Below, piece by piece: positions 14,499 through 58,191 of a stretch of DNA of 63,273 bases. The notes under the pieces are model-generated. The model was not told where the DNA came from. It did no database searches and worked only from the letters and a program-made list of their open reading frames with translations. A program made the translations under genes and the position numbers. Source of the stretch: a virus; the IMG/VR virus record IMGVR_UViG_3300048583_000095, positions 1-63,273 of that record; one strand, written 5' to 3'. Each line of letters opens with the position of its first letter. Positions within the stretch are counted from its first letter, which is position 1.

Positions 14499-14570
14499 GC
14501 CTTCGTAGCTCATTGGCAGAGCAGCGGCTTCCAAACCCGCGTGCAGGTGGTTCGATTCCATCCGGGGGTG
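14499..14570 (+). tRNA. tRNA-Trp(CCA)
   Basis: Hand fold: acceptor GCCTTCG/CGGGGGT (G-U rich), D-arm GCTC..GAGC, anticodon loop TTCCAAA, T-arm GGTGG-TTCGATT-CCATC, G73. Confidence 0.75.
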
Positions 14571-14680
14571 CGTAGTGTGTTGATCCGTACATTGCAAGGC
14601 CACGCGACTAACCATCGCAACGGATCGACCGGCTCGGGTAGCTCCCGGGACCGGAAAAGGCTCCCGGTGGTTCGGGGGTA

Positions 14681-14746
14681 AACGTACTAGCTCAATGGCA
14701 GAGCACCCGGTGAGGGAGGTTCGGGGTTCGATTCCCCGGTACGTTA
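14681..14746 (+). pseudogene. tRNA-like remnant (66 nt) with a truncated anticodon arm
   Basis: Perfect acceptor AACGTAC/GTACGTT, D-arm GCTC-AATGGCA-GAGC and T-arm CGGGG-TTCGATT-CCCCG. Only 17 nt lie where 22-23 are needed, and no canonical anticodon loop forms. Confidence 0.5.
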
Positions 14747-14770
14747 CGAGGCGCGCAAGCGCCACACGAT

Positions 14771-14840
14771 GCGGGATAGCTTAAGGGTAGAGCTGCGGCC
14801 TCATAAGCCGTAAGGTGCCGGTTCGACTCCGGTTCCCGCT
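14771..14840 (+). tRNA. tRNA-Met(CAT) (could be elongator, initiator or Ile2 type)
   Basis: Acceptor GCGGGA/TCCCGC, anticodon stem GCGGC/GCCGT, loop CTCATAA, T-loop TTCGACT; the T-stem/acceptor junction is irregular. Confidence 0.65.
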
Positions 14841-14902
14841 ACTAGGACGGTTCGGCACGGAGTGCTCGGGGATGCACCTCATGGGAACCCGGATCGTCCG
14901 AT

Positions 14903-14987
14903 GGAAAGTGCGTGTATTGGCAAGCACAGCCGGGTTGCTAACTCGGCGATCCCGCACGGGGTCGGGGTTCGATTCCCTCACTTTCCA
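14903..14987 (+). tRNA. tRNA-Ser(GCT)
   Basis: Acceptor GGAAAGT/ACTTTCC, loop TTGCTAA, long variable arm, T-loop TTCGATT. Confidence 0.8.
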
Positions 14988-15088
14988 CTTTCGTTCCCAC
15001 GGGATGACACGGGTACGGGAGAAGGGGAACCGGCAGTACGTAGGAACTAGGCCGATGTGGCTAGGTGACCGCAAGTGCTGCCGGACAT

Positions 15089-15178
15089 GGAAAGTATGCG
15101 CCAACGGGTGCGCACCTGGTCTCGAAAACCGGGACGTCGGCCGCGAGGTCGGCGGGGGTTCGAATCCTCTACTTTCCG
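15089..15178 (+). tRNA. tRNA-Ser(CGA)
   Basis: Acceptor GGAAAGT/ACTTTCC, anticodon stem CTGGT/ACCGG, loop CTCGAAA, long variable arm, T-loop TTCGAAT. Confidence 0.8.
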
Positions 15179-15183
15179 CGCAA

Positions 15184-15269
15184 TGGCGTCAGTCGCAGGT
15201 GCGACAGCGAGCCTGTAAAGCTCGCGTCGGGGAAACTCGACAAGGTGGGTTCGATACCCACGGCGTCAA
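15184..15269 (+). tRNA. tRNA-Tyr(GTA)
   Basis: Anticodon stem CGAGC/GCTCG, loop CTGTAAA, long variable arm, T-arm GTGGG-TTCGATA-CCCAC, acceptor TGGCGTC/GGCGTCA with two G-U pairs. Confidence 0.65.
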
Positions 15270-15330
15270 CAAAGCGGCTTCGGTTCCAACACACTACTAA
15301 CGGTGCGCTGGTCTCGACCCGAAGCCGCGA

Positions 15331-15403
15331 GCCCGCCTAGCTCAGCGGATAGAGCATCCGGTTCCGGACCGGAAGGCGCGTGGTTCGAGTCCACGGGCGG
15401 GCA
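15331..15403 (+). tRNA. tRNA-Arg(CCG)
   Basis: Acceptor GCCCGCC/GGCGGGC, stem TCCGG/CCGGA, loop TTCCGGA, T-loop TTCGAGT. Confidence 0.85.
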
Positions 15404-15434
15404 CGCCAGATACACGACGAAAGAGGATGGATAC

Positions 15435-15848
15435 ATGCGAAAACTGACGAAGACGCTCGTCGCCGCTGCCGGTGCCGCGACGCTCGGGGTCACGCTCACG
15501 GCGTGCACCGCAGCCGACACGGCTTCACACAACATCTCCACAGCGGCCGAGAACTTCGAAGTCCTACGGCGCATCGTGTTCTTCAACGGGATCACGGACA
15601 CGTACCTTCTGACGATCGAAGGCCGCTGCAACATCGAAGACGAGGGCAATCAGCTCGAAGTCACGTGCAAGATCGCGGACGGCGACGGCGAGAACGCGTA
15701 CACGAAGCACTTTCTCGGCCTGTCCGACAACGTGACATACTTCGTCGAGCAGATGGAAGTCGTCGATGTCGACGAGTTCCATCACCGGATCATCTTCCGG
15801 CCCGAGACGATCGTGCCGGACATCGATCTAGAGACGTCGGGCAACTAA
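15435..15848 (+). CDS. secreted lipoprotein (signal peptide with lipobox LTAC)
   Basis: ORF 15303.. trimmed to ATG 15435 because the upstream part overlaps tRNA-Arg. N-terminus MRKLTKTLVAAAGAATLGVTLTAC. Confidence 0.8.
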   Translation: MRKLTKTLVAAAGAATLGVTLTACTAADTASHNISTAAENFEVLRRIVFFNGITDTYLLTIEGRCNIEDEGNQLEVTCKIADGDGENAYTKHFLGLSDNVTYFVEQMEVVDVDEFHHRIIFRPETIVPDIDLETSGN

Positions 15849-15854
15849 GCTTCA

Positions 15855-15872
15855 CGGGGGTGCGAGCCCCCG
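15855..15872 (+). terminator. short stem-loop after the lipoprotein gene
   Basis: CGGGGG-TGCGAG-CCCCCG. Confidence 0.45.
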
Positions 15873-15880
15873 GAAGCCGA

Positions 15881-15953
15881 GCGGGTTTAGAGTAGCGGTC
15901 ATCTCGTCACATTCTCAATGTGAAGATCACGGGTTCGAATCCCGTAACCCGTG
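15881..15953 (+). tRNA. tRNA-Glu(CTC)
   Basis: Acceptor GCGGGTT/AACCCGT, stem TCACA/TGTGA, loop TTCTCAA, T-arm ACGGG-TTCGAAT-CCCGT. Confidence 0.8.
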
Positions 15954-16037
15954 CAAGGCGACATGAGGCATACGAAGAAGGTCGCCCCGATCATCGGTCG
16001 GGAGCCGGGGGAGCCTCATCTCCGGCTCTGAAATAAA

Positions 16038-16111
16038 TGCCTTGTGGTGTAACCCGGCAACACGCTAAGCTTTGGACTTAGAGATTCTTGGTTCGAATCC
16101 AAGCGGGGCAG
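16038..16111 (+). tRNA. tRNA-Gln(TTG)
   Basis: U1-A72 acceptor TGCCTTG/CGGGGCA, stem CTAAG/CTTAG, loop CTTTGGA, G73. Confidence 0.8.
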
Positions 16112-16119
16112 CTATACGA

Positions 16120-16191
16120 TGCTCGGTAGCTCAGCGGCAGAGCGCGCGACTGTTAATCGCGTGGTCGAAGGTTCGAATCCTTCTCGGGCAG
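16120..16191 (+). tRNA. tRNA-Asn(GTT)
   Basis: Acceptor TGCTCGG/TCGGGCA, stem CGCGA/TCGCG, loop CTGTTAA, T-arm GAAGG-TTCGAAT-CCTTC, G73. Confidence 0.85.
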
Positions 16192-16211
16192 CTCGAACAA
16201 CTGAAGAACGA

Positions 16212-16283
16212 TGCTCGCTAGTTCAATGGCAGAACGGCCGCCTCTGGAGCGGAAGGTTCGTGGTTCGAATCCACGGTGAGCAG
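16212..16283 (+). tRNA. tRNA-Gln(CTG)
   Basis: Acceptor TGCTCGC/GTGAGCA, loop CTCTGGA, T-arm CGTGG-TTCGAAT-CCACG, G73; one mismatch at the top of the anticodon stem. Confidence 0.75.
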
Positions 16284-16341
16284 CTTGGACAAGCAAGACG
16301 TGAAGGCGTGACCAACCGCAGCGATGCGCGCGCCTGATCTA

Positions 16342-16413
16342 GCTCCGGTCGTCTATGGGTTAAGATCCGAGATTTTCACTCTCGGGTACAGGGTTCGAGT
16401 CCCTGTCGGAGTA
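16342..16413 (+). tRNA. tRNA-Glu(TTC)
   Basis: Acceptor GCTCCGG/TCGGAGT, stem CGAGA/TCTCG, loop TTTTCAC, T-arm CAGGG-TTCGAGT-CCCTG. Confidence 0.8.
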
Positions 16414-16605
16414 CGTGTGAGGTGACCGTGTGATAACTCTAGGTGACTCTAGAGCGTGATAACGGGTGAACTCAGGCAATGCCGGGTAAGGCTAGGGTCT
16501 CTCTGCCCCGGTCGCCGAAGTGAGGACTCGACGGTTAGTTTCCGGACGGAACCGCCGATGCCGGGTTAGTCGCCCGAATGCCTCGCGGAAGCGAGGAGAG
16601 AATAT
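16414..16605 (+). ncRNA. unassigned structured spacer inside the tRNA array (candidate small RNA)
   Basis: 192 nt with no tRNA T-loop and no ORF. Local hairpins CTCTAG-GTGACT-CTAGAG, CCGGG..CCCGG, CCTCGC-GGAA-GCGAGG. GTGATAAC is repeated twice. Confidence 0.3.
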
Positions 16606-16677
16606 GCCGTGTTAGCTCATTGGTAGAGCGTTCGCCTGTCGAGCGAAGGGTAACGGGTTCGATCCCCGTACATGGCG
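16606..16677 (+). tRNA. tRNA-Asp(GTC)
   Basis: Acceptor GCCGTGT/ACATGGC, stem TTCGC/GCGAA, loop CTGTCGA, G73. Confidence 0.85.
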
Positions 16678-16714
16678 CAAGGTTCCGACCGCTGACAGGA
16701 CGGCCGGAGCCGGA

Positions 16715-16786
16715 CGGGTTATGGCCTAGTGGGATGGCGCGTGATTTGGGATCACGAGGACCCCGGTTCGATTCCGGGTAACCCGA
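16715..16786 (+). tRNA. tRNA-Pro(TGG)
   Basis: Acceptor CGGGTTA/TAACCCG, stem CGTGA/TCACG, loop TTTGGGA, T-arm CCCGG-TTCGATT-CCGGG, A73. Confidence 0.85.
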
Positions 16787-16788
16787 CT

Positions 16789-16861
16789 GTGACGTTAGCT
16801 CAGCGGCAAGAGCGTTCGGATGTGGCCCGAAAGGTCGCGGGTTCGAATCCCGTACGTCACC
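16789..16861 (+). tRNA. tRNA-His(GTG)
   Basis: Acceptor GTGACGT/ACGTCAC, stem TTCGG/CCGAA, loop ATGTGGC, C73; no encoded G-1. Confidence 0.85.
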
Positions 16862-16876
16862 CCAACTTCATAGCAA

Positions 16877-16950
16877 GCCCCGTTAGCCCAACTGGCAGAG
16901 GCGTCTGATTTAGGTTCAGAAGGTTCCGAGTTCGACTCTCGGACGGGGTA
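16877..16950 (+). tRNA. tRNA with Leu anticodon TAG but a short (class I) variable arm
   Basis: Acceptor GCCCCGT/ACGGGGT, stem TCTGA/TCAGA, loop TTTAGGT, 5-nt variable region AGGTT, T-arm CCGAG-TTCGACT-CTCGG, A73. Confidence 0.6.
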
Positions 16951-16955
16951 CGTAA

Positions 16956-17028
16956 GCTCGTGTAGTCCAACGGCAGAGACACCGGATTCAAATCCCGGCA
17001 AGTCCCGGTTCGAATCCGGGCACGAGTA
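16956..17028 (+). tRNA. tRNA with Leu anticodon CAA but a short (class I) variable arm
   Basis: Acceptor GCTCGTG/CACGAGT, stem CCGGA/CCCGG (one A-C mismatch), loop TTCAAAT, variable CAAGT, T-arm CCCGG-TTCGAAT-CCGGG, A73. Confidence 0.6.
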
Positions 17029-17032
17029 CAGC

Positions 17033-17105
17033 GCCCCGGTAGCTCAGCGGATAGAGCGACGGTCTACGAAGCCGGTAGTCGATGGTTCGATTCCATCTCG
17101 GGGCA
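17033..17105 (+). tRNA. tRNA-Arg(ACG)
   Basis: Acceptor GCCCCGG/TCGGGGC, loop CTACGAA, T-arm GATGG-TTCGATT-CCATC, A73. Confidence 0.8.
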
Positions 17106-17123
17106 CGCAAGACAACTAGATAT

Positions 17124-17194
17124 GCCGGTGGGGTGTGTGGGTTGCACGACTGTCTTCCAAACAGTTAGACCGTGTTCGAGTCACGGTACCGGTT
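17124..17194 (+). tRNA. tRNA-Gly(TCC)
   Basis: Acceptor GCCGGTG/TACCGGT, stem ACTGT/ACAGT, loop CTTCCAA, T-arm CCGTG-TTCGAGT-CACGG, U73. Confidence 0.8.
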
Positions 17195-17267
17195 CGAGAG
17201 AAGGCGTCGCACAGACAGCAGGTGCGCGCACTGTGAAGGCTCGAAACCTTCGGCGTCTTCTCGCACT

Positions 17268-17340
17268 GCCTTCGTAGCTCAGTGGACAGAGCAGCCGTTT
17301 CGTAATCGGCCGGTCCGGGGTTCGAATCCTCGCGGAGGCT
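17268..17340 (+). tRNA. tRNA-Thr(CGT)
   Basis: Acceptor GCCTTCG/CGGAGGC, loop TTCGTAA, T-arm CGGGG-TTCGAAT-CCTCG. Confidence 0.8.
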
Positions 17341-17406
17341 CAAGGCTCGACAACGGCAGTTGGCGAGTTCGGCAAGACGTCAAATCTCGACCCCGAGATT
17401 TGAGAT

Positions 17407-17480
17407 GTCTCGTTAGCTCAGTTGGCAGAGCACCGGAGTGAAGTCCCGGGCGGCGTGGTTCGATCCCACGGCAAGAGACG
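17407..17480 (+). tRNA. tRNA-Phe(GAA), atypical T-stem/acceptor junction
   Basis: D-arm GCTC-AGTTGGCA-GAGC, stem CCGGA/CCCGG, loop GTGAAGT, T-loop TTCGATC. Acceptor GTCTCGT/AAGAGAC only fits with 2 extra nt or a 7-bp T-stem. Confidence 0.55.
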
Positions 17481-17506
17481 GTTAAGTGTGCTGCTATACT
17501 CGACGC

Positions 17507-17905
17507 ATGACGAAACGTGAAAATTACAATGAGTACATGCGCGAGTACATGCTTAAGCGATACCACCGACGCCGGTCGGACTCGATCGAGAATCTAGGCG
17601 GGAAGTGTGTCGTCTGCGGCACCACGGACAATCTAGAGATCGACCACATCGACCGGAGCACGAAGACGATGGATATCAGCGGCCTATGGTCGTGCAATAT
17701 CCAGCGGTACGAGACGGAACTCAAGCTCTGTCAACTGCTGTGCGAAGCGCACCACCAGGAGAAGACGAGCCGGGAAAGCTCTGTACCTCACGGAGGCGGC
17801 GCGTCCGGTAAGCGCAACTGTAAATGCGAACCGTGCAGACTTCGCAAAAACGAATATATGCGCAATTGGAAACAAAAGAATAAGCAAGCCTCGTTAGCTC
17901 AGTAG
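17507..17905 (+). CDS. HNH endonuclease
   Basis: CVVCGTTDNLEIDHIDRSTK ... LLCEAHHQEKT HNH/zinc motif. ORF 17486.. trimmed to ATG 17507. The last 18 nt overlap tRNA-Lys(CTT). Confidence 0.85.
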   Translation: MTKRENYNEYMREYMLKRYHRRRSDSIENLGGKCVVCGTTDNLEIDHIDRSTKTMDISGLWSCNIQRYETELKLCQLLCEAHHQEKTSRESSVPHGGGASGKRNCKCEPCRLRKNEYMRNWKQKNKQASLAQ

Positions 17906-17961
17906 GTCAGAGCTTCCGGCTCTTAACCGGTAGGTCCCTGGTTCGAATCCAGGACGGGGCA
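17888..17961 (+). tRNA. tRNA-Lys(CTT)
   Basis: Acceptor GCCTCGT/ACGGGGC, loop CTCTTAA, T-arm CCTGG-TTCGAAT-CCAGG, A73. Confidence 0.85.
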
Positions 17962-17962
17962 C

Positions 17963-18035
17963 GCCTCGCAAGCACATGTGGACGTGCTCTCGACTTTTAA
18001 TCGAGAGGTACCCGGTTCGAGGCCGGGGCGGGGCA
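17963..18035 (+). tRNA. tRNA-Lys(TTT)
   Basis: Acceptor GCCTCGC/GCGGGGC, D GCAC/GTGC, stem CTCGA/TCGAG, loop CTTTTAA, T-arm CCCGG-TTCGAGG-CCGGG. Confidence 0.85.
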
Positions 18036-18043
18036 CGTTTTAC

Positions 18044-18118
18044 ACCCCGCTAGCTCAGCGGATAGAGCCGGAGTTTCCTAAACTCTGTGGGTCTCGGGTT
18101 CGAATCCCGGGCGGGGTA
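18044..18118 (+). tRNA. tRNA-Arg(CCT)
   Basis: Acceptor ACCCCGC/GCGGGGT, stem GGAGT/ACTCT, loop TTCCTAA, T-loop TTCGAAT. Confidence 0.8.
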
Positions 18119-18119
18119 C

Positions 18120-18194
18120 GGCGAGTTAGCTCAACATGGTTAGAGCGCGATCCTGATACGATCGTGGTTCCGAGTTCAAATCTCGGGCTCGCTA
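18120..18194 (+). tRNA. tRNA-Ile(GAT)
   Basis: Acceptor GGCGAGT/GCTCGCT, stem CGATC/GATCG, loop CTGATAC, T-arm CCGAG-TTCAAAT-CTCGG. Confidence 0.8.
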
Positions 18195-18195
18195 C

Positions 18196-18268
18196 GCACC
18201 GGTAGCTTAGTGGCAAAAGCAGCGGCTTTACATACCGCTGATCGAAGGTTCGAGTCCTTCTCGGTGCA
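18196..18268 (+). tRNA. tRNA-Val(TAC)
   Basis: Acceptor GCACCGG/TCGGTGC, loop TTTACAT, T-arm GAAGG-TTCGAGT-CCTTC, A73. Confidence 0.8.
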
Positions 18269-18357
18269 CGGATACGCACGCTGTGCATGGCGTGTATAGA
18301 CGGGGTTAAGTACCGTCTCGCGGGGATGTCGCTCCCGTGTCCTCCCATGCGGCGCAA

Positions 18358-18430
18358 GGGCTGTTAGCTCCAACGGTAGAGCGTCTGTTTTGCAAACAGA
18401 GGGTTGTCGGTTCGAATCCGTCACGGTCCA
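18358..18430 (+). tRNA. tRNA-Ala(TGC)
   Basis: Acceptor GGGCTGT/ACGGTCC with a G3-U70 pair, stem TCTGT/ACAGA, loop TTTGCAA, A73. Confidence 0.85.
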
Positions 18431-18485
18431 CGGAGGGTGCGAGCGCGTGTTAACGACTTCGGCGCGCGCTCGCGCTCTACCCCAC

Positions 18486-18556
18486 GGCGTGATGTCCGAG
18501 TGGCTAGGTCGCAGACTGCAAATCTGCTCACGTGGGTTCGAATCCCGCTCGCGCCT
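18486..18556 (+). tRNA. tRNA-Cys(GCA)
   Basis: Acceptor GGCGTGA/TCGCGCC, stem GCAGA/TCTGC, loop CTGCAAA, T-arm GTGGG-TTCGAAT-CCCGC, U73. Confidence 0.8.
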
Positions 18557-18584
18557 CTCATGAAGTACGACGAAAGGACGAAAG

Positions 18585-18929
18585 ATGGACATTGCGATTC
18601 TCATCGTGCACACGTTGCTGTGGCTGCTGCTCGGCGCGTTCAGCTTCACGCTGATCGGGAAGCAGACGAAGGGCGACCGACGCACCGGGGTCGCCATCCT
18701 GGCATGGCTGAACGGTATCTTCACGATTGCCTTCGTGTTCTGGTGGGACACGCCCGACACGGCGTCGATGATCGCGAAGTACTCGATCATCGCCTTCATG
18801 TGGATCACATGGCTGCTCAGTCTCCCGAACATCAATAAGCCGTACCCGGTTCCCCGGCTGTGGACGACCACGATCGGCGCGGCCTTGATCGCGGCGCGCA
18901 TCGGCGTCGTGATCGTCTTCTGGCACTGA
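18585..18929 (+). CDS. multi-pass membrane protein
   Basis: ATG after CGACGAAAGGACGAAAG motif; 3-4 hydrophobic helices. Confidence 0.8.
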   Translation: MDIAILIVHTLLWLLLGAFSFTLIGKQTKGDRRTGVAILAWLNGIFTIAFVFWWDTPDTASMIAKYSIIAFMWITWLLSLPNINKPYPVPRLWTTTIGAALIAARIGVVIVFWH

Positions 18930-18940
18930 TAACTCAAGAT

Positions 18941-18998
18941 GAGCGCGCATGAGCGCGCACCTCGTGATGAGCGCGCATCCCCCCGGATGCGCGCTCAT
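18941..18998. repeat. three direct copies plus one inverted copy of ATGAGCGCGCA; the last pair forms a terminator
   Basis: gATGAGCGCGCATGAGCGCGCAcctcgtgATGAGCGCGCAtccccccggATGCGCGCTCATtttcg. Confidence 0.9.
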
Positions 18999-19002
18999 TT
19001 TC
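18967..19002 (+). terminator. rho-independent terminator
   Basis: 12-bp stem ATGAGCGCGCAT / ATGCGCGCTCAT followed by TTTCG. Confidence 0.8.
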
Positions 19003-19003
19003 G

Positions 19004-19020
19004 TACTCTGATACAATTCG
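19004..19020 (+). promoter_or_regulatory. class-1 phage promoter-like box TACTCTGATACAATTCG
   Basis: One of four near-identical ACTCTGAYAnnATTC boxes (also at 46415, 53852, 56533), each 23-35 nt upstream of a start codon; -10-like TACAAT. Confidence 0.6.
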
Positions 19021-19047
19021 CTGACGACGAGATGAGAGGACGAAACG

Positions 19048-20268
19048 ATGAACGATTTCACTGCTACCCCGAACGGCGCGCTCGTGAGCGCGCTCGCGCT
19101 CGCAGCGCTCATGATGATCGTGATCGCGCTCGTGACCTCGCGCGGTGCGCGAGCGCGCGCAGTCGAGAAGGCGCGCGCATGGGCGGCGCTCAAGGCTCCC
19201 GAGTGGGAAGCGCGCGCTGAGCGCAAGCGCGAAGAGCGCGTATCCGGCGCGCGTAACCGAGCGCGTATCCGGGGCGCGCTCTTGCTCGCCGTCGCGCTCG
19301 TCGCGCTCGGCGCGACGAACCTGAGCGCGCACGGGACGCTCGACATGATCGCGCGCGCCGGTCTCGACTCGCTTGACGCGCAGATCGCCGTAATCGTCGT
19401 CTTCGAAATGTTCCTTGCGATTCTAGGGGCGCTCTCGTACTGGCACATGCACCACGGCACCGGGTTTAACAAGTACGAAGCTGGTGTGTGGGCGATGGCG
19501 TCGCTCATGGGCGTGCTGTCGTGGTGGGGCGCGGGAAGCATGATCTTCGCGCTGTGGCCGCTTCTCGCGGCCGTTGCGTGGCACATGGTCATCACCTTCG
19601 GACGCGAGCACAAGACGTCTCCCCTGATCACCTGGTGGCGTCTGAAGCGAGGCAAGGCGACCTCGCGCGACGCGAGCACGGTCATCACTGAGCGCCTGAT
19701 CACCCGGATCGTGAACAACGGCTACGCCGCCAACGAAGGCGCGAAGCTGCTGCGCTCGGCGCGCTCGCGCGCGTTCGACCGCGCGTGGGCGGAAGCCGAC
19801 GCGCTCGGCATCCTCACGCCCGAGGTGCGCGCGCGCATCCAGACGCGCACGGCCGCGCGCTACGCAGGCGCGAGCGCTCTCGCGCGCGACGCCGTCATGC
19901 ACATGAGCCCTTGGAATGAGCGCGCGCAGAGCGCGCGCACCGTGCGCGCAGTGCGCCCCGTGAGCGCGCCCCCCGCACTCGCCGTCGAGACGAGCGCGCA
20001 CGAGGACACCGACGAGCGCGCACCCGAGATCGTCGAGAGCGCGCCCGCGCGCGTCGTCCTTCCCGGCGCGCACACCACGGCCGATCTGATCGACGCCGTC
20101 AAGGCGAACTTCGCCGGACCGGTCGAACTCGTCGAGTGGATCGAGACGTTCATTCGCACGAACGGCGCGCTGCCCACCCGGAACGACCTCGCGGTTCCCG
20201 CGCAGAAGTCCCCCGGGCACGTGGCCCGATGGATGATGCCGGTCCGCAAGGAACTCGGCCTCAGCTAG
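19048..20268 (+). CDS. membrane protein with a C-terminal soluble domain (DUF2637-like, tentative)
   Basis: N-terminal half has about 4 TM helices (LLLAVALVALGA.., IAVIVVFEMFLAILGAL.., VWAMASLMGVLSWWGA.., ALWPLLAAVAWHMVITF). Ala/Arg-rich linker. Immediately upstream of the FtsK-like gene. Confidence 0.7.
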   Translation: MNDFTATPNGALVSALALAALMMIVIALVTSRGARARAVEKARAWAALKAPEWEARAERKREERVSGARNRARIRGALLLAVALVALGATNLSAHGTLDMIARAGLDSLDAQIAVIVVFEMFLAILGALSYWHMHHGTGFNKYEAGVWAMASLMGVLSWWGAGSMIFALWPLLAAVAWHMVITFGREHKTSPLITWWRLKRGKATSRDASTVITERLITRIVNNGYAANEGAKLLRSARSRAFDRAWAEADALGILTPEVRARIQTRTAARYAGASALARDAVMHMSPWNERAQSARTVRAVRPVSAPPALAVETSAHEDTDERAPEIVESAPARVVLPGAHTTADLIDAVKANFAGPVELVEWIETFIRTNGALPTRNDLAVPAQKSPGHVARWMMPVRKELGLS

Positions 20269-20470
20269 CGGCACAGTGAGCGGCACACCGGCACAGCTGG
20301 TGTGCCGCTCCGGCACGGTTCCCACCGGCACCGGCACACCCCCTTTGGGTGTCTGATCAGGGAAAACACCGATCCGACACGCTCGGCACGGTGTGCCGGA
20401 CTAGCGCGCGACAAAAACGAATGTGCAGGTCGGGCACCCCTAGGGGGTGCCCGCCTGGTGTGCCGTGCCG
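20269..20470. repeat. array of 11 CGGCAC hexamers (7 forward, 4 inverted) in an intergenic region
   Basis: Forward at 20269, 20281, 20289, 20311, 20326, 20332, 20384. Inverted GTGCCG at 20302, 20393, 20460, 20465. Includes palindromes CGGCACAGCTGGTGTGCCG and CGGCACGGTGTGCCG. Confidence 0.9.
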
Positions 20471-20476
20471 GAGGGG

Positions 20477-20484
20477 TGTATAAT
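20477..20484 (+). promoter_or_regulatory. consensus -10 element TGTATAAT downstream of the CGGCAC array
   Basis: TATAAT at 20479-20484 preceded by TG, 40 nt upstream of ATG 20525. Confidence 0.55.
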
Positions 20485-20524
20485 GAAATACCTGATCAAT
20501 CCACAGACGAAAGGACGACAGACT

Positions 20525-20995
20525 ATGGATATCGCGATTGAAAGCACGCTCGGGAACGGTGCCGCTGGCTTCGTTTCGCTCGTGCTCTTCGTCGGCGCGT
20601 GGATTCTGAACAACGTGCTCGATCAAAAGAAGTGGTCGGCGTTCCTCGTGCTCCCGATCGCGCTCACGGCCTCGTTCGTGCTGTACGCGTCGACCTGGTC
20701 GGCGACGTGGTGCCGCTGGATCGGCAACATCTTGGGCGGCGTCGGCGGGATGTTCGGCGTTGACGACATGCCGCTGAGCTTCATCTTCAGTCTCGCCTGC
20801 GTCGTCGCCGTCGTCGTCGTCGCGGCCGACCTCAGCATCGACCCACGCGACAACCCGGCCGCCGTGTGGTCGCTCTTCATCGCGCCGGTCACGGCGCACG
20901 GAGCGGGCGGCGTCGTCGGCAGCGCGGCCGACGCCTTCTTTAGCGGGATGGCTCTCGGGCTCATCGACGCCGTGAAGCAGTTGACGGGCGCGTGA
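20525..20995 (+). CDS. multi-pass membrane protein
   Basis: ORF 20447.. trimmed to the ATG after AGACGAAAGGACGACAGACT; 4-5 hydrophobic helices. Confidence 0.75.
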   Translation: MDIAIESTLGNGAAGFVSLVLFVGAWILNNVLDQKKWSAFLVLPIALTASFVLYASTWSATWCRWIGNILGGVGGMFGVDDMPLSFIFSLACVVAVVVVAADLSIDPRDNPAAVWSLFIAPVTAHGAGGVVGSAADAFFSGMALGLIDAVKQLTGA

Positions 20996-20996
20996 C

Positions 20997-22814
20997 ATGA
21001 CCGACGAACTTCAGAACGACGAGCGCGCACCTGCGCGCAACGCGGCGCGCGCTTCGTGGGAACTCTTCTCGCGGGGCGCGCGCCGCCACGCTGACAGCGC
21101 GCGCGCATGGGTGCGCGCCGAAGGACTCGAAGCAGTCATCAAAGAGCGCGACGCGCGCGCGATCACGGCGCACATCGAACGGGAGGCGCGCGCGCGCAAG
21201 TCGAAGCGCGCGCGCACTCGCTACACGCCGCCCCCGCGCGCGCTCGCGCCTATCGAGATCAAGGCGCGCGCGTTCGGGAAGCGCGCAGTGCGCTCGGGGG
21301 TCGCGCTCGCGATCCCGTGCGCGCTCATCGGCTACCCGGTGCACGCGCTCTTTCAGGGCGATCCCGGATTCCTGCTCGTGTGGCCTGCCACGTACGCCTA
21401 TCTCGTTTGGGACGGGTGGGCGCACCGCGCCGACGAAGTCGACGGCGCTCCCGTCGCCGACGAGGTCGCCGAGTCCGGCGAGTCGAAGCCGTCGCTCTTC
21501 GCGAAGATGCGTGGCACGTCCGGCCTGAAGCCGACGCCGGAGGAATCGGAGATCATTCACCGGATCACGGCATGGGACGAACGCGCCGCCGAGCGCAAGC
21601 TTCACGAGGTGATCCCCGGCCCCCCGGTGATCGACGAGTCGGGCTTGCTCATCCCGATCGGCTTCGCCGGGGTGTGGACTCCGGCGAAGCTCGACGAGCA
21701 AGTCGACCAGGTGCGCGCGCTGCTCGCCGTTCCCGACAAGGTGCGTACGCAAGTCAAGCCGGGAGGCACGGCCGATCGCGCGGTGCTGCGCGTCCGCACC
21801 CGGACGCGCGCGCTCGATCTGACGTGGTCGCCCGAGCGCGAAGGAATCGGGCTCGACGCCGACACGGCCGAAGTCGTCCGGGTGAACACCGATGAGCGCC
21901 TGCTCGTCGCGGGTACGTCCGGCTCGGGTAAGTCGGTCGCGCTGCGTGTGCTCATGGCGGATGCGCTCGCGAAGCCGCACACGGCGCTCGTGATCCTTGA
22001 CCTGAAGCGTGCCGAAGGCGCGCTCTGGCGTCACACGGCGCGCGTCGAGTCGGAGCCCGAAGGCGTGCAAGGCGTCATTGACGAGCTGATCGCCGAGATG
22101 AAAGAGCGCGAAACCATCATGGAATCGCGCGGCATCGACCTATGGGAGCCCACCGACGAGCGGCCGAACATCGTCGTGTCGGTCGACGAGGGTGCGGAAC
22201 TCATGGCGGAAGTTCCCGATTCAGTCGGCGGACTCCGGTCGCTTGCTCGACGTGCCCGCGCTGCGGGTATCCGCCTATGGTGGGCGACGCAGAAACCCAC
22301 CATGACGGGGAACGGTCCGGGGCTCGATTCGCAGATTGCCGGACAGCTCACGACGCAAGTGTGCCTCGCGGTCGCGGGCTCGAAGGAAGCGCGCGTTGTG
22401 CTCGGCGAAGACGCCACCGGCAAGGGATGGCACGCGGAAGACTTGGAAAAAGGCGGGTGGGCGCTTGTACGCGTGCAGGGTGAGGATCGCGCCCCCGATC
22501 CCGTCCGAGTATGGTTTATGGAAAAGGAACACGTGAAGGCGCTTCCGGCGCGCGAGGCGTGGCGACGGGAGTCGGCCGCGCCGAGTGCGTACAAGGCTCA
22601 CAACGTGCTCGACGCCGCGTTGCACCTCTCCGAAGGACTGCACGGCGTCGCCACGGCGCGGCTCGCGGCGTACCTCGGGATCACGGATGTCGAAGTGCAC
22701 ACGCGGATGCGCGCGTACGGCTGCACGCCGGAGCCGAACGCCTTCGCGATGGGCAACGGCGAAAAGGCTCGGGGATACCGCCGATCGGTTCTCGAAGCTG
22801 CGAAGAACGGATGA
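20997..22814 (+). CDS. FtsK/SpoIIIE (TraB-like) DNA translocase
   Basis: Walker A LLVAGTSGSGKSVAL, Walker B VVSVDEGAELM, N-terminal hydrophobic segment, Ala/Arg-rich N-terminus. Confidence 0.85.
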   Translation: MTDELQNDERAPARNAARASWELFSRGARRHADSARAWVRAEGLEAVIKERDARAITAHIEREARARKSKRARTRYTPPPRALAPIEIKARAFGKRAVRSGVALAIPCALIGYPVHALFQGDPGFLLVWPATYAYLVWDGWAHRADEVDGAPVADEVAESGESKPSLFAKMRGTSGLKPTPEESEIIHRITAWDERAAERKLHEVIPGPPVIDESGLLIPIGFAGVWTPAKLDEQVDQVRALLAVPDKVRTQVKPGGTADRAVLRVRTRTRALDLTWSPEREGIGLDADTAEVVRVNTDERLLVAGTSGSGKSVALRVLMADALAKPHTALVILDLKRAEGALWRHTARVESEPEGVQGVIDELIAEMKERETIMESRGIDLWEPTDERPNIVVSVDEGAELMAEVPDSVGGLRSLARRARAAGIRLWWATQKPTMTGNGPGLDSQIAGQLTTQVCLAVAGSKEARVVLGEDATGKGWHAEDLEKGGWALVRVQGEDRAPDPVRVWFMEKEHVKALPAREAWRRESAAPSAYKAHNVLDAALHLSEGLHGVATARLAAYLGITDVEVHTRMRAYGCTPEPNAFAMGNGEKARGYRRSVLEAAKNG

Positions 22815-22825
22815 AAGGAATCGAT

Positions 22826-23065
22826 ATGCCGCTGAAATGGATTAAGGACGACGAGAGCCTACACACGTACCGTGCGGAGACGGTTCGATACCGCTTCATC
22901 ATGGTCGCGCCCCTGCGTGCACGGGCGACGCTGTGGGTACAGCACGTCGCCGACGACTGGGGAGAGAACCCGATCGACCAGCGGTTGTGCCGGGGTCGGC
23001 GTACCGCCGAGCGCATCGCGCAGCGGTTCGCCGACAAGCCGTTTACGCCGCGTCGCCTGCGCTGA
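22826..23065 (+). CDS. hypothetical protein
   Basis: ATG after GGATGAAAGGAATCGAT motif. Confidence 0.65.
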   Translation: MPLKWIKDDESLHTYRAETVRYRFIMVAPLRARATLWVQHVADDWGENPIDQRLCRGRRTAERIAQRFADKPFTPRRLR

Positions 23066-23153
23066 GAAAAACTTCAAAAAATTTTGCTGTCTCGCTTGCA
23101 GCACCCGGAAGCGTCGGTATATGCTTCATAGACCGACGACGAAAGGACGAACG

Positions 23154-23621
23154 ATGAACACTCTCGCTATCACTTCCCCCGCCTCCCCGGCTCAGCTCGG
23201 CTACCTCCGTAGCCTGCTGATCGAGCGGATCGAAGACAAGGCGGCGTCGGATGCTGCTGTGCAGTGGCTCGACGGTCACCGGCTGTCGAAGGCGACGGCG
23301 TCGGCGAAGATCAAGGAATACGAGAACAAGCCGAAGTTCCGCGAAGTGCTCGACGAGGGGATGTACAAGGTCGGCGAAGACATCTTCAAGGTGTACTTCA
23401 CACAGGAAGGCCACATCGCGACGAAGCAGCTTACCCCGGACGGCTTCGAGTACACCGGCCGTAAGCCGCTCGCCGTGATCAAGCCCGAGCACCGCATGAC
23501 GCTCGACGAGGCGAAGGAATACGGCAAGGTCACCGGCACGTGCTGCTCGTGCGGTCGCCTGCTGACGAACGAAGAGAGCATTGCGGCCGGGATCGGCCCG
23601 ATCTGCGCGACGAAGTTCTAG
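23154..23621 (+). CDS. hypothetical protein with C-terminal CCxCG...GIGPxC motif (DUF6011-like)
   Basis: ATG after CGACGAAAGGACGAACG; C-terminus TGTCCSCGRLLTNEESIAAGIGPICATKF. Confidence 0.75.
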   Translation: MNTLAITSPASPAQLGYLRSLLIERIEDKAASDAAVQWLDGHRLSKATASAKIKEYENKPKFREVLDEGMYKVGEDIFKVYFTQEGHIATKQLTPDGFEYTGRKPLAVIKPEHRMTLDEAKEYGKVTGTCCSCGRLLTNEESIAAGIGPICATKF

Positions 23622-23629
23622 GGGAAAAT

Positions 23630-24076
23630 TTGAATCAACCGGGGGAGAGGGCTCGCGGCTTCGGCCGCGAGCCTTCGCGCCGTTGGCGGGACGACGCCGC
23701 CTGTCGGACGATGGCGGATCGCTACTTCGACCCGTGGGACTCCGACGACAAAGCGATCGAGCCCACGCCGACAGCGGCGCAGATATGCGGGACATGTCCT
23801 GTCCGGCGAGCCTGCCTGGTCGAAGCCATCGCGAACGCCGAGAGCTACGGGACGTGGGGTGGGCTCACCCTGAAGCAGCGGAAGAAACTCATCCGCGCGC
23901 GGAAGCGCGTCCGGTGTCCGATCTGCTCGGGGAACCTGCTCGCGCTCACGGAGGATCACGCGCAAGCCTGCCTCTCGTGCGGGATCACATGGCGCACGAT
24001 CGCCCCTACCCGTCGTAATGCGCAAGCCAGTTCACCGGAACGTCCACCCACGTCGACACGTCAGCGGACCCGCTGA
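23630..24076 (+). CDS. whiB: WhiB-family Fe-S transcription factor with an extra C-terminal zinc-ribbon-like CPIC...CLSC
   Basis: WRDDAAC...CGTCPVRRAC...GTWGG WhiB signature. The only in-frame start upstream of the first Cys is TTG 23630. The 3' end overlaps convergent gene 24006..24488. Confidence 0.75.
   Translation: MNQPGERARGFGREPSRRWRDDAACRTMADRYFDPWDSDDKAIEPTPTAAQICGTCPVRRACLVEAIANAESYGTWGGLTLKQRKKLIRARKRVRCPICSGNLLALTEDHAQACLSCGITWRTIAPTRRNAQASSPERPPTSTRQRTR
23650..23673 (+). terminator. GC-rich hairpin (terminator/attenuator-like) inside the 5' end of the WhiB ORF
   Basis: GGCTCGCGGC-TTCG-GCCGCGAGCC. Confidence 0.5.
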
Positions 24077-46716: not shown

Positions 46717-46744
46717 TGAGCCCGCCCCTTCGGGGGCGGGCTCA
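46717..46744. terminator. bidirectional terminator hairpin
   Basis: TGAGCCCGCCCC-TTCG-GGGGCGGGCTCA between convergent genes. Confidence 0.8.
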
Positions 46745-48292
46745 TCGGCGTGGAACGAGGCTCGTCGGGATGCCGGACGGGAAGCCGGGGATGAACGAGT
46801 TCGGGAACACCGCACCCGGACCGGCGATGCCTCCCGTGAGGTCGGCGGCGTCGAACGCCTGCCGCGAGTCCGACACGGGCGGAATCCAAATGCCGTCGAA
46901 GAACGCGAGTAGCAGCGCGTCGGCGATGTCGGGAGAGCGGCCGAGTCGTTCCTTCACATCCTCTTTCGGCTCGACGAGGATGCGGCCGTTCTTCTCTAGA
47001 TAGCGCGGCATCGTGAGTTCGGCAATCGCATCATCGTCGAGGTTCGCGAGTGACCACGCCTTGTCCCGGGACAGCTCGCGGCCGTGCCACCAGGCTTCGG
47101 CGCGGATGTTCACGAAGCGCTTCGGGAAGTTCGAGCGGTCGGAGAACTTGACGCTCTCGATCGCCACGCCTTCGGCCTTGAGTTCCTTGCGCAGCATCCC
47201 GGCGAGGCCCCACCCGACGCCGATCGTGTCGACGTTCACGCGCGTGAGTCGCCATCGTCGGATCACGTCGGCAAGCTTCTCGGCCGCCGCTTCGGGGTCC
47301 CGTTCTTGGAACGACTCGACGCGGCCGACAGCGTCGTTCACGCGCTCGACGAGCACCGTACGGTCGCCGCCCGCACCGATGTCGAGCCCGCCGACGCGCA
47401 CCGGATCGGCGTCGTAGGCCGGTTCGATGTAGCGGCACGCGGCGGCGTGCACTTCGGAGATCACGCGCCACGGGTCGGCCGCGCCGGTCGGGAAGTGTCC
47501 GAGTACCTTCGCCTGATACAGCGCCGACTCTTCGCCCCACTCGGCGCGCCGGTCTTCCGCCCACTCCGGCGAGATCAGGTAGTCGAGCAGTTCGGCCGGG
47601 ACGGCTTCGCCCGTGAGCGCGGGCGCGTGCTCGATCCCGATGTGAATGACGTTGTACGGGCTCGACGGCTTGCACGCCGTCGCGAGTGGCGAGTGCGGCA
47701 GGTCGGGGTTCCCGATCGCGAGGATGCGAGAGAGCCGGTTCGATGCGATCGACTCGGCCGCCTCCCAAATCTTCGTGTCGACGCCTGAAGCCTCGTCGAG
47801 AATGACGAGCACGTACTTCGAGTGCACACCCTGAAACGCGGCTTCGTTGTCCTTCGACGTGGTGCGGCCGAAGGCAACTAGCTCTTCGCCTCCGGCGTCG
47901 TTCGGGATGTACCACTCAGTGAGGTTCACCCGGCCGAAGAGGTTCGCGCGCCCGTGCAGGCGGCCGATTTCACGCCAGAGCAGCGCCTTCACCTGCGGTG
48001 CGGTCGGCGCAGTCGAGAGTACGAAGGCTTCGCCGGGCTTGTGCGAGGCAATCCACCACGCCGCCGTCACGGCCGCCGTGAACGTCTTGCCGACGTTGTG
48101 GCACGAGTGCACGGCCGTGCGTCGGTGGTCGCGTACGGACTGAATCACGTCCCGCTGCTTCGACCACAGGTGCACGCCGACGTCGGTCGCCCACCGAACG
48201 GGGTCGGCCGTGTAGTCGATCTTCGCGCGCTCGGCATCGTCGAGCGCGGCAATGATCTCTGTCGCGAGGTCGGGCGATTCAGGCGCGTGCAT
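46742..48292 (-). CDS. terminase large subunit
   Basis: ORF trimmed to ATG 48292. Walker A-like HSCHNVGKTFTAAV, Walker B VLVILDEASGV, C-terminal nuclease-like region. Confidence 0.85.
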   Translation of the reverse strand: MHAPESPDLATEIIAALDDAERAKIDYTADPVRWATDVGVHLWSKQRDVIQSVRDHRRTAVHSCHNVGKTFTAAVTAAWWIASHKPGEAFVLSTAPTAPQVKALLWREIGRLHGRANLFGRVNLTEWYIPNDAGGEELVAFGRTTSKDNEAAFQGVHSKYVLVILDEASGVDTKIWEAAESIASNRLSRILAIGNPDLPHSPLATACKPSSPYNVIHIGIEHAPALTGEAVPAELLDYLISPEWAEDRRAEWGEESALYQAKVLGHFPTGAADPWRVISEVHAAACRYIEPAYDADPVRVGGLDIGAGGDRTVLVERVNDAVGRVESFQERDPEAAAEKLADVIRRWRLTRVNVDTIGVGWGLAGMLRKELKAEGVAIESVKFSDRSNFPKRFVNIRAEAWWHGRELSRDKAWSLANLDDDAIAELTMPRYLEKNGRILVEPKEDVKERLGRSPDIADALLLAFFDGIWIPPVSDSRQAFDAADLTGGIAGPGAVFPNSFIPGFPSGIPTSLVPRR

Positions 48293-48303
48293 ACCGTGAG
48301 TAT

Positions 48304-48330
48304 ACGAAAACGGCCGCCCGAAGGCGGCCG
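48304..48330 (-). terminator. terminator hairpin upstream of the terminase gene
   Basis: Coding-strand CGGCCGCC-TTCG-GGCGGCCG followed by TTTTCG. Confidence 0.65.
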
Positions 48331-48339
48331 TTCGCGGTG

Positions 48340-48642
48340 CTACAGGATCGGGCTCGGCGTCTTCGTGCGGCGCGCCGCCTTCGCCTTGACCGTGGGGCGG
48401 TTCTGCCGCTTCGTGTACCACGCCTTGAGCGCGTCGTACTCGAAGACGAAGCGCGCCTTGCTCTTGTTCGCCTTGCGCCACGACTCGTCGGTGTCGATCT
48501 TGAGCCGGATCAAGCGCGGGTCGGCCGCCTTGTCGCTCATCTGGAGCATTGCACGGAAGTAGTCGCGCGAATAGCCGAAGTGGTCGGCCGCCTGGTCGGC
48601 CGTCAGCAGGTCGCCCGGCTCATAAATGATCACGGTTTTCAT
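48340..48642 (-). CDS. HTH DNA-binding protein (small terminase or excisionase-like candidate)
   Basis: LLTADQAADHFGYSRDYFRAML helix-turn-helix-like segment; basic C-terminus; immediately upstream of the large terminase. Confidence 0.55.
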   Translation of the reverse strand: MKTVIIYEPGDLLTADQAADHFGYSRDYFRAMLQMSDKAADPRLIRLKIDTDESWRKANKSKARFVFEYDALKAWYTKRQNRPTVKAKAARRTKTPSPIL

Positions 48643-57966: not shown

Positions 57967-58191
57967 ATGAAGAGCAAGCAGACGCGCGCGCAGCGCGCCG
58001 AGCTGAAGCGACGCGGGATCAAGCCCGGCAAGGTCACGGAGGAGAACCAACACGGGCAGGCGACGGGGGGATGGTCGCCGTTCGCCGCGCCTGCCGCTCC
58101 GGCCCGGATGGAACCGGTCGACGACGTCGCGTACGACGCCTTCGACCGCGTCAACCGGTCATGGTTCACGCACAAGCCGAAAGGGCAGTAA
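57967..58191 (+). CDS. hypothetical protein
   Basis: ATG 57967 within ORF 57622..58191; basic N-terminus. Confidence 0.6.
   Translation: MKSKQTRAQRAELKRRGIKPGKVTEENQHGQATGGWSPFAAPAAPARMEPVDDVAYDAFDRVNRSWFTHKPKGQ

Follow-up and report, generated by a model that had tools for sequence, protein, structure and literature searches.

A probable phage-borne version of the actinomycete TraB-clt-Spd double-stranded DNA transfer system

Three consecutive phage genes and a cluster of short repeats together resemble the DNA transfer apparatus of actinomycete conjugative plasmids. The window analysed here is the whole of IMG/VR record IMGVR_UViG_3300048583_000095, a complete phage genome of 63,273 bp with direct terminal repeats and a G+C content of about 64%. 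All three open reading frames (ORFs) lie on the + strand with a third-position G+C (GC3) of 0.82-0.87, and their coordinates and lengths are as given in a preliminary description made from the sequence alone. They encode a 406-aa membrane protein (P0001, 19048-20268), a 156-aa membrane protein (P0002, in an ORF running from 20447 with its likelier start at 20525, to 20995) and a 605-aa ATPase (P0003, here TraB, 20997-22814). A 214-bp repeat-bearing gap, intergenic region 2 (20269-20482), separates P0001 from P0002, and the stop codon of P0002 adjoins the start of traB. The preliminary description likened these genes to the transfer apparatus of actinomycete conjugative elements, and the likeness is supported: the ATPase falls beside Tra/TraB of Streptomyces plasmids and of the conjugative, integrating elements of actinomycetes (AICEs), and the membrane proteins relate to transfer loci. 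We conclude that the module is very probably a phage-borne version of the actinomycete TraB-clt-Spd system for double-stranded DNA transfer.

The ATPase is an FtsK/SpoIIIE-type translocase of the conjugative Tra/TraB kind. Both nucleotide-binding motifs reported earlier are present, Walker A GTSGSGKS at residues 306-313 (nt 21912-21935) and Walker B VDEGAEL at residues 396-402 (nt 22182-22202). The protein matches Pfam FtsK_SpoIIIE (PF01580) above the cut-off (E 1e-18), and its best PHROG is the FtsK/SpoIIIE-like phrog_17958 (E 2e-66). Tra of pIJ101 is 41% identical over 373 aa (pairwise E 1e-66) and Tra of pTSC1 43% identical; nearly all plasmid matches are small Streptomyces conjugative plasmids. 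The nearest genomic relatives are Streptomyces AICE TraBs at 46-47% identity, and the closest TraB relatives come from filamentous actinomycetes, while FtsK in the PDB scored only 35 bits by sequence. The AlphaFold2 (AF2) model (pLDDT 78) finds its best PDB fold matches in the FtsK motor 6t8o (E 8e-18) and the conjugation coupling protein TcpA. Whether made by profile, by pairwise comparison or by fold, the searches thus return FtsK/SpoIIIE for a protein that might have proved to be a packaging ATPase. That terminase reading is rejected by the PHROG ranking (terminase PHROG only 3e-13), by the FtsK-motor fold and by a separate large terminase gene (TerL, 46742-48481, - strand, phrog_2, E 7e-35), whose existence the preliminary description had rightly pointed out.

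TraB proteins seem to have entered phages more than once. A maximum-likelihood tree sets the TraB-type proteins apart from the 1500-aa FtsK-family proteins as one clade with 100/100 support. The tree was rooted at its midpoint only, and the branching order is unsettled among its three lineages: a pair of actinomycete contigs (L017 and the Nocardiopsis contig L042), the phage clade (monophyletic, 100/99), and the Streptomyces plasmids with AICEs. Phages of the genus Woodruffvirus nest beside pIJ101/pTSC1 Tra, inside the plasmid/AICE lineage. Because these phages and the phage clade described here fall in separate lineages, TraB was apparently acquired by phages at least twice.

The two ends of TraB suggest a membrane anchor and a DNA-reading domain. 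Hydropathy and the AF2 model place a membrane hairpin at residues ~100-142 (nt 21294-21422), and AICE TraB homologues (594-598 aa) have a predicted hydrophobic hairpin at the same place (~105-109). Anchoring through this N-terminal hairpin is a prediction from models and hydropathy. At the other end, a winged-helix-like domain spans residues ~535-605 (nt 22599-22811); residues 537-604 are predicted to fold as H-E-H-H-E-H with pLDDT of ~85, a likeness drawn from predicted secondary structure alone. The C-termini of plasmid and AICE homologues match MarR_2 or HTH_IclR, unlike the phage tail. Across the phage clade the Walker A and B motifs and many other positions are invariant, with no frameshifts and no decayed motifs.

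P0002 belongs to a family of small membrane proteins found next to TraB. Its product has 3-4 hydrophobic helices, in agreement with the polytopic protein described earlier. A word-based search returned only 12 P0002 clusters, and in each member of the clade a hidden Markov model (HMM) built from them matches the gene in this position. The same HMM matches ORFs directly 5' of TraB in L017 (E 2e-15) and in Nocardiopsis halophila L042 (E 7e-25), and an hhalign comparison of the P0002 family with the L017 upstream ORF reaches 97.5% (E 8e-12). On the L017 contig no gene is recognisably of phage origin, and one codes for a GntR/UTRA regulator of the TraR/KorA type. Because such ORFs directly precede TraB in these two actinomycete contigs, P0002 and TraB are a conserved pair reaching beyond phages, and the relationship of at least this membrane protein to transfer loci is borne out. 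In the comparisons run, P0002 was unrelated to DUF6251, KilB, SpdA or the 114-aa protein encoded upstream of the module.

The start of P0002 and its promoter lie close together. The record's own call is a 170-aa protein from ATG 20483, overlapping a conserved TATAAT at 20479-20484 on the + strand; this putative -10 element of the P0002-traB promoter is part of a GTATAAT block invariant in 12 aligned sequences. Because the TATAAT overlaps that ATG, and because GAAAGGA precedes ATG 20525, the latter is the more likely start. The -35 region, covered by GGTGTGCCGTGCCGG, is poor: a consensus promoter scan returned no sigma-70-type site and no -35 match.

P0001 has the architecture of the Streptomyces spread protein SpdB2. 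Hydropathy and the AF2 model (pLDDT 76) agree with the earlier description of about four transmembrane helices followed by a soluble C-terminal domain. In the model an N-terminal helix runs into a long basic helix and then a four-helix membrane core (from ~68 or ~72 to 184). Beyond the core come a helical soluble part, a disordered Pro/Ala linker and a confident four-helix, helix-turn-helix (HTH)-like C-terminal domain (residues ~344-403, nt 20077-20256). Published SpdB2 is 409 aa long, with an N-terminal coiled coil, four transmembrane helices and a C-terminal domain, and it binds double-stranded DNA and forms pores (PMC4447253). P0001 matches this layout in size, four-helix membrane core and soluble C-terminal part; DNA binding by its tail is a prediction. 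Its gene also lies beside traB on the same strand, and AICE loci L018 and L022 carry a DUF2637 gene 1-2 kb 5' of TraB. A comparison of synteny proposed earlier turned out in favour of the likeness: the nearest Streptomyces AICEs share the order DUF2637 protein, small membrane protein, TraB.

Sequence searches with P0001 reach little beyond its own narrow family. It has no Pfam match at E 0.1 and no PHROG match, and tblastn against phage and plasmid collections stayed empty up to E 10. Among 1.84 billion representatives, only 18 proteins were recovered by a profile search, all of the same narrow family or stray HTH repeats. No ORF around 79 TraB-like genomic loci matched the P0001 HMM, comparison with pIJ101 SpdB and KilB (including SpdB against the P0001 profile) gave no similarity, and a sequence search of the PDB with the C-terminal domain was empty. 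Foldseek searches of the PDB and VIA-wide searches returned only generic helical bundles with Z up to 8.9, which are uninformative for helical proteins.

Three comparisons nonetheless point to DUF2637, to which the polytopic proteins encoded beside TraB in AICEs belong. In language-model features of the ESM Atlas, P0001 lies at 0.91 to DUF2637 clusters, and 17 of its 30 neighbours are DUF2637 proteins, with SpdB_N plus HTH among others. Its hhalign comparison with a DUF2637 alignment built from 29 Streptomyces genes reaches P 2.7e-4 across 126 membrane-core columns, against 0.1-0.2 for reversed controls. Foldseek against viral models (BFVD) finds phiC31 Gp25 at E 0.03, and phage DUF2637 proteins there match at probability 0.99-1.0 and E 0.25-0.4, with TMt 0.44-0.54 and a root mean square deviation of 3.4-5.4 over 135-145 columns. 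For actinophage SpdB2 homologues Thoma et al. cite two references, one of them the paper on the phiC31 genome (PMC4447253). The three comparisons are independent and individually weak. P0001 is SpdB2-like in architecture and position, and probably a remote relative rather than a demonstrated family member.

An exceptional cluster of repeats lies in the gap that separates P0001 from P0002. A k-mer scan singled out this 214-bp stretch, which contains 11 CGGCAC/GTGCCG hexamers where the remainder of the genome predicts 0.24 (Poisson 4e-15); elsewhere, 3 is the maximum for a stretch of 214 bp. All five exact genomic copies of CGGCACACC fall within 20269-20482, in both orientations. The repeat unit, CGGCAC[A/G][C/G][C/G/T], occurs in 7 forward and 4 reverse copies, which include the palindrome CGGCACGGTGTGCCG and an inverted repeat of 10 bp directly following the stop codon of P0001. 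Sequence and place of the cluster are kept in 11 of 11 relatives, with TraB identity down to 60%. Scanning IMG/VR for the 15-mer palindrome gave 70 stretches: all 7 with at least 7 nearby hexamers carry P0001 or TraB homologues, and the remaining 63 have at most 4 hexamers and no such homologue. A genome-wide polarity signal like that of KOPS was considered and rejected, with 31 one-mismatch copies of CGGCACACC against 26.7 expected.

The repeats have the features of a clt site and seem to be tied to TraB. A clt site is a cis-acting locus of repeated 7-9-bp words on the same replicon, beside the pump gene, and as a sequence feature the cluster fits this. The functional clt of pJV1 consists of nine 9-bp repeats, CCGCACA[C/G][C/G], and TraB/TraA proteins bind such repeats; described clt repeats are mainly direct (PMC3583192). 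The classical position of clt is immediately 3' of traB. TraB of L017 shares the phage-type C-terminus, and its gene has at least nine copies of the same word directly 3' and none 5'. Its sister TraB in L042 (100/100) carries a MarR-type winged HTH and is without a CGGCAC cluster. The two loci, L017:1914-3940 and L042:1908-4587, have a P0002-like upstream gene in common and differ in the C-terminal domain. The pair looks like a natural swap of domain and site.

Repeat word and C-terminal domain type show an apparent pairing, CGGCAC with the phage-type domain and the Woodruffvirus word GGGAACGG with the MarR-type domain, and L017 and L042 differ in both. The 3' copies in L017, the L042 locus without a cluster, the Woodruffvirus word and the likeness to pJV1 clt together tie the repeats to TraB and not to transcription alone. 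We infer that the CGGCAC[A/G][C/G][C/G] cluster is a docking site read by the TraB C-terminal domain. A further role as operator is possible, since the -35 region of the promoter for P0002-traB lies under its last copies.

The module recurs in many related viruses. The gene order P0001-P0002-TraB is conserved in 11 related viral contigs, and database searches put the P0001 clusters at about 140 (E<=0.001), while TraB clusters with >=60% identity number well over 100. Many of them sit on contigs of ~60 kb, so the carriers form a widespread uncultured phage clade.

The module stands at the end of the rightward replication arm. The left arm, on the - strand, carries Prim-Pol and D5-type helicase genes, and the rightward replication block encodes, in order, PolA, an SNF2 helicase, a Cas4-like PD-(D/E)XK nuclease, AAA_24 and DUF669. 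A 27-tRNA array (14499-18557, + strand) directly precedes the module; a 28th tRNA, tRNA-Ser, lies on the - strand at 58096-58182. Directly 3' of traB, within 22872-24076, are genes for a 249-aa DUF6011 protein (phrog_636) and, at 23630-24076, for a WhiB-like regulator, which marks a host as actinobacterial. The structural genes, for a tail protein, MuF, portal and the large terminase, run leftward and converge on the module side. Portal and polymerase are 29-35% identical to proteins of cultured actinophages from many genera. Among the portal matches with the best coverage are Woodruffvirus phages of Streptomyces griseus (29-32% identity), the nearest cultured match for this protein.

The phage, presumably of a high-GC actinobacterial host, is apparently virulent. 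Whole-genome Pfam searches found no tyrosine integrase, serine recombinase or resolvase, and no ParA-type protein (AAA_31), and a search for GntR-type TraR/KorA regulators had no match at E 0.1. As far as these searches reach, the earlier impression of a lytic phage holds. A 181-aa product at 15303-15848 matches phrog_478, 'recombination directionality factor' (E 3e-46), in this genome with no detectable integrase. Beside the D5-type primase-helicase gene (883-2631, - strand), the intergenic stretch 564-855 holds about 10 copies of ATCCCTGCACAG in both orientations and 10 of the 14 genomic copies of CCCTGCAC; these repeats look like iterons or an origin.

Upstream of P0001 lie a further small gene and a regulatory gap. 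The gene (18585-18929, + strand, GC3 0.91) encodes a 114-aa membrane protein of four helices, with four hydrophobic segments and no family match in Pfam or PHROG. It keeps its position in related contigs L006, L008 and L015 and is a conserved upstream neighbour whose membership in the module is uncertain. Like P0002 it starts with MDIAI and has a similar Shine-Dalgarno sequence. Intergenic region 1 (18930-19047, + strand) contains two direct ATGAGCGCGC copies, a terminator hairpin at about 18967-19004 (ATGAGCGCGCATCC / GGATGCGCGCTCAT followed by a T-run), a TACAAT -10 element at 19012-19017 and a Shine-Dalgarno sequence before P0001. When 10 relatives are aligned, the distant ones still show a hairpin here, of other sequence, so the changes are compensatory. 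Counted over 18939-19004, ATGAGCGCGC occurs in three direct and one inverted copy, the last pair building the hairpin. One-mismatch copies of ATGAGCGCGC are enriched in the genome (29 against 17.6 expected) and concentrated in 18939-21328, mostly in Ala/Arg-rich coding stretches. We considered the GAGCGCGC-rich coding stretches as a signal and rejected them, reading them as an incidental consequence of basic helices rich in Ala/Arg at high GC3; outside the genes, most GAGCGCGC copies belong to the terminator hairpin.

The most likely role of the module, which we put forward tentatively from sequence, is that TraB drives phage DNA from one host compartment or cell to another. On this reading TraB is a hexameric FtsK-like pump of the Tra/TraB type, held in the membrane by its N-terminal hairpin. 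P0002 is the small membrane protein that accompanies this lineage of TraB, and P0001 an SpdB2/DUF2637-like polytopic protein with a DNA-binding tail. The WhiB-like gene beside the module and the filamentous actinomycetes among which TraB has its closest relatives speak for the proposal. The module would probably be expressed together with the genes of the rightward replication arm. On phage DNA in replication, TraB would then use the repeats as its loading site and, with ATP, pump this substrate through a membrane and septal passage that P0001 and P0002 organise. An adjacent hyphal compartment or attached cell would receive the DNA, and the benefit to the phage would be an infection that extends without extracellular virions.

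A bolder form of this proposal extends it to the whole clade, and we regard it as doubtful. It holds that a widespread clade of virulent actinophages uses a TraB with an undescribed C-terminal DNA-reading domain, and a cognate CGGCAC site on its own genome, to move replicating viral DNA into neighbouring compartments or cells, as a particle-free, receptor-independent second route of infection within the lytic cycle. If the pump does move phage DNA from compartment to compartment or cell to cell, lytic phages of filamentous bacteria would have a route that bypasses adsorption, receptors and surface-based defences, and plaque formation, burst size and phage resistance in Streptomyces-like hosts would have to be read differently. 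The pairing of repeat word and C-terminal domain could also help to predict TraB specificity.

Several results weigh against intercellular transfer by a TraB-clt-Spd system. Of the Pfam families named in the preliminary description, FtsK_SpoIIIE was confirmed for the ATPase, but P0001, whose remote similarity to DUF2637 proteins is weak to moderate, fails the DUF2637 model (PF10935); a six-frame search of the genome with that model found nothing at E 10. The hhalign signal between P0001 and the DUF2637 alignment is unstable and becomes weaker with subsets. The C-terminal domain of TraB has no Pfam HTH match and no PDB match by sequence. The partly palindromic structure of the repeat cluster and its overlap with a promoter resemble operators, unlike the mainly direct clt repeats. 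No TraR/KorA-type regulator was found in the genome by the GntR search. At 64% GC the host need not be mycelial, and the likeness of portal and polymerase spans many genera. Finally, a lytic phage that destroys its own compartment may gain little from slow DNA transfer.

An unlikely alternative is that the module acts within a single cell. The FtsK-like pump would segregate or decatenate replicating or concatemeric genomes, position them at the membrane or feed them to packaging, with the repeats as loading or orientation sites and no intercellular transfer. FtsK-family motors do such work for chromosomes, and TraB shares the FtsK fold; its gene closes the replication arm, following PolA, the SNF2 helicase, the Cas4-like nuclease and the tRNA array. 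Annotations of Streptomyces phages commonly include FtsK-like translocases, with no more than guesses at their role; for the cultured-phage homologues the published guess is replication (PMC11536984). Against these points, TraB groups with conjugative Tra/TraB and not with chromosomal FtsK. A membrane anchor with two dedicated polytopic partners is the signature of transfer across the envelope (PMC4447253). Pfam integrase and recombinase searches of the genome revealed no Xer/dif-type recombinase, and the repeat motif is limited to one 214-bp site and not spread or polarised like KOPS.

In a second, rather improbable alternative, the module is a device for host takeover, exclusion or lysis. 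It would arrest or permeabilise the host, expel or block incoming DNA as superinfection exclusion, or mobilise host DNA, and the repeats would be an operator only, for tight autoregulation of a toxic operon. Such toxicity has precedent: traB and traR form a Kil-Kor pair in which unregulated traB is toxic, and SpdB2 forms pores and let T7 lysozyme reach the wall (PMC4447253). PHROG, moreover, places phage FtsK-like proteins under 'moron / host takeover', and the last repeats overlap the promoter -35 region in a cluster that is partly palindromic. L017, however, has the same repeats 3' of traB, away from its promoter, and a clt-like cis site on the phage genome points to phage DNA as the substrate. 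The motor residues conserved throughout the clade, Walker A/B and many invariant positions among them, argue for real translocation. That the module is a passenger remnant of a captured conjugative element, of no present use to the phage, is highly improbable: TraB genes did enter phages at least twice in the tree, and mosaic acquisition from AICEs is plausible with Prim-Pol genes common to both, yet three genes and a repeat cluster remain intact and syntenic across many ~60-kb contigs of a clade diverged to 60% protein identity, without frameshifts or decayed motifs.

Transfer of phage DNA, our preferred reading, has been raised before for related proteins. In 2015 Thoma et al. noted SpdB2 homologues in actinophages and suggested that they might help in spreading phage DNA (PMC4447253). 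None of the literature searched puts a module of this kind to the test in a phage. The plasmid-phage pZL12 (Zhong et al. 2010, J Bacteriol 192:3747) is reported, in papers that cite the original work, to transfer by means of a tra gene together with two neighbouring genes (PMC3583192, PMC4487206). As they present it, pZL12 is like our phage a phage genome with a tra gene, but it is a temperate plasmid-prophage of the 90-kb class with ParAB, whereas no plasmid-maintenance or lysogeny genes were found here. It was not among the phage-collection matches at E 1e-5.

The closest known systems are the Tra/TraB-clt-Spd systems of Streptomyces plasmids (Tra, SpdA, SpdB and KilB of pIJ101; TraB and SpdB2 of pSVH1; TraA of pWTY27) and those of AICEs. 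Phage and elements have in common a membrane-anchored FtsK-like translocase of ~600 aa. Just 5' of it, on the same strand, both encode a polytopic protein with a soluble DNA-binding tail, predicted in the phage, and a small membrane protein, and both have a local cluster of short repeats beside the pump gene. The AICE order is DUF2637 protein, DUF6251 small membrane protein, TraB with a MarR winged HTH, Prim-Pol, DUF3631 and integrase. Unlike these elements, the phage module rides on a complete tailed-phage genome with its own terminase, in which no integrase, Rep-type maintenance function or GntR-type TraR/KorA was detected. GntR-type Kil-Kor pairing is typical of most plasmids and not universal. 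The components differ as well: the C-terminus of phage TraB is not a MarR-type winged HTH, P0001 lies outside the DUF2637 HMM, and P0002 is of a family other than DUF6251, KilB and SpdA. The repeats lie 5' of the small-protein/traB operon and in both orientations. As published, pJV1 clt has a 9-bp unit that is one position off the phage form CGGCACA[C/G][C/G/T]; both sites pack many copies into ~200 bp and include inverted repeats. The pJV1 repeats are described as direct, whereas 7 of the phage hexamers point forward and 4 in reverse.

Cultured phages offer a parallel in layout. The Woodruffvirus phages YDN12, TP1604, Abt2graduatex2 and Xkcd426 encode an FtsK-like translocase 36% identical over the motor, in a module annotated only as FtsK-like. 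The shared layout comprises a three-transmembrane protein of 331-336 aa with a C-terminal HTH, a small protein, a gap of ~310 bp that bears a short repeat array and a TATAGT promoter, and the translocase. The first of these Woodruffvirus proteins has a MerR/HTH_17 tail, is annotated as hypothetical and is encoded two genes 5' of the FtsK-like gene. In Abt2graduatex2 (L127:3571-3891) and Xkcd426 (L128:3561-3864), a terminator hairpin, 6-8 direct (C/G)GGAACGG repeats and an TGGTATAGT promoter lie just 5' of that gene. There are also differences. Woodruffvirus TraB is sister to pIJ101/pTSC1 Tra, while the phage clade is a separate deep branch; it carries a MarR-type winged HTH, and GGGAACGG repeats lie 5' of its gene. 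Its small middle protein is soluble and no homologue of P0002, and its module sits at the genome end.

What sets the present case apart from described modules is thus a combination of carrier and components. The carrier is a phage without detectable lysogeny or plasmid genes. Its TraB belongs to a deep separate lineage with a non-MarR tail and is accompanied by a new partner family, P0002, and a well-defined, conserved candidate docking site lies between the genes.

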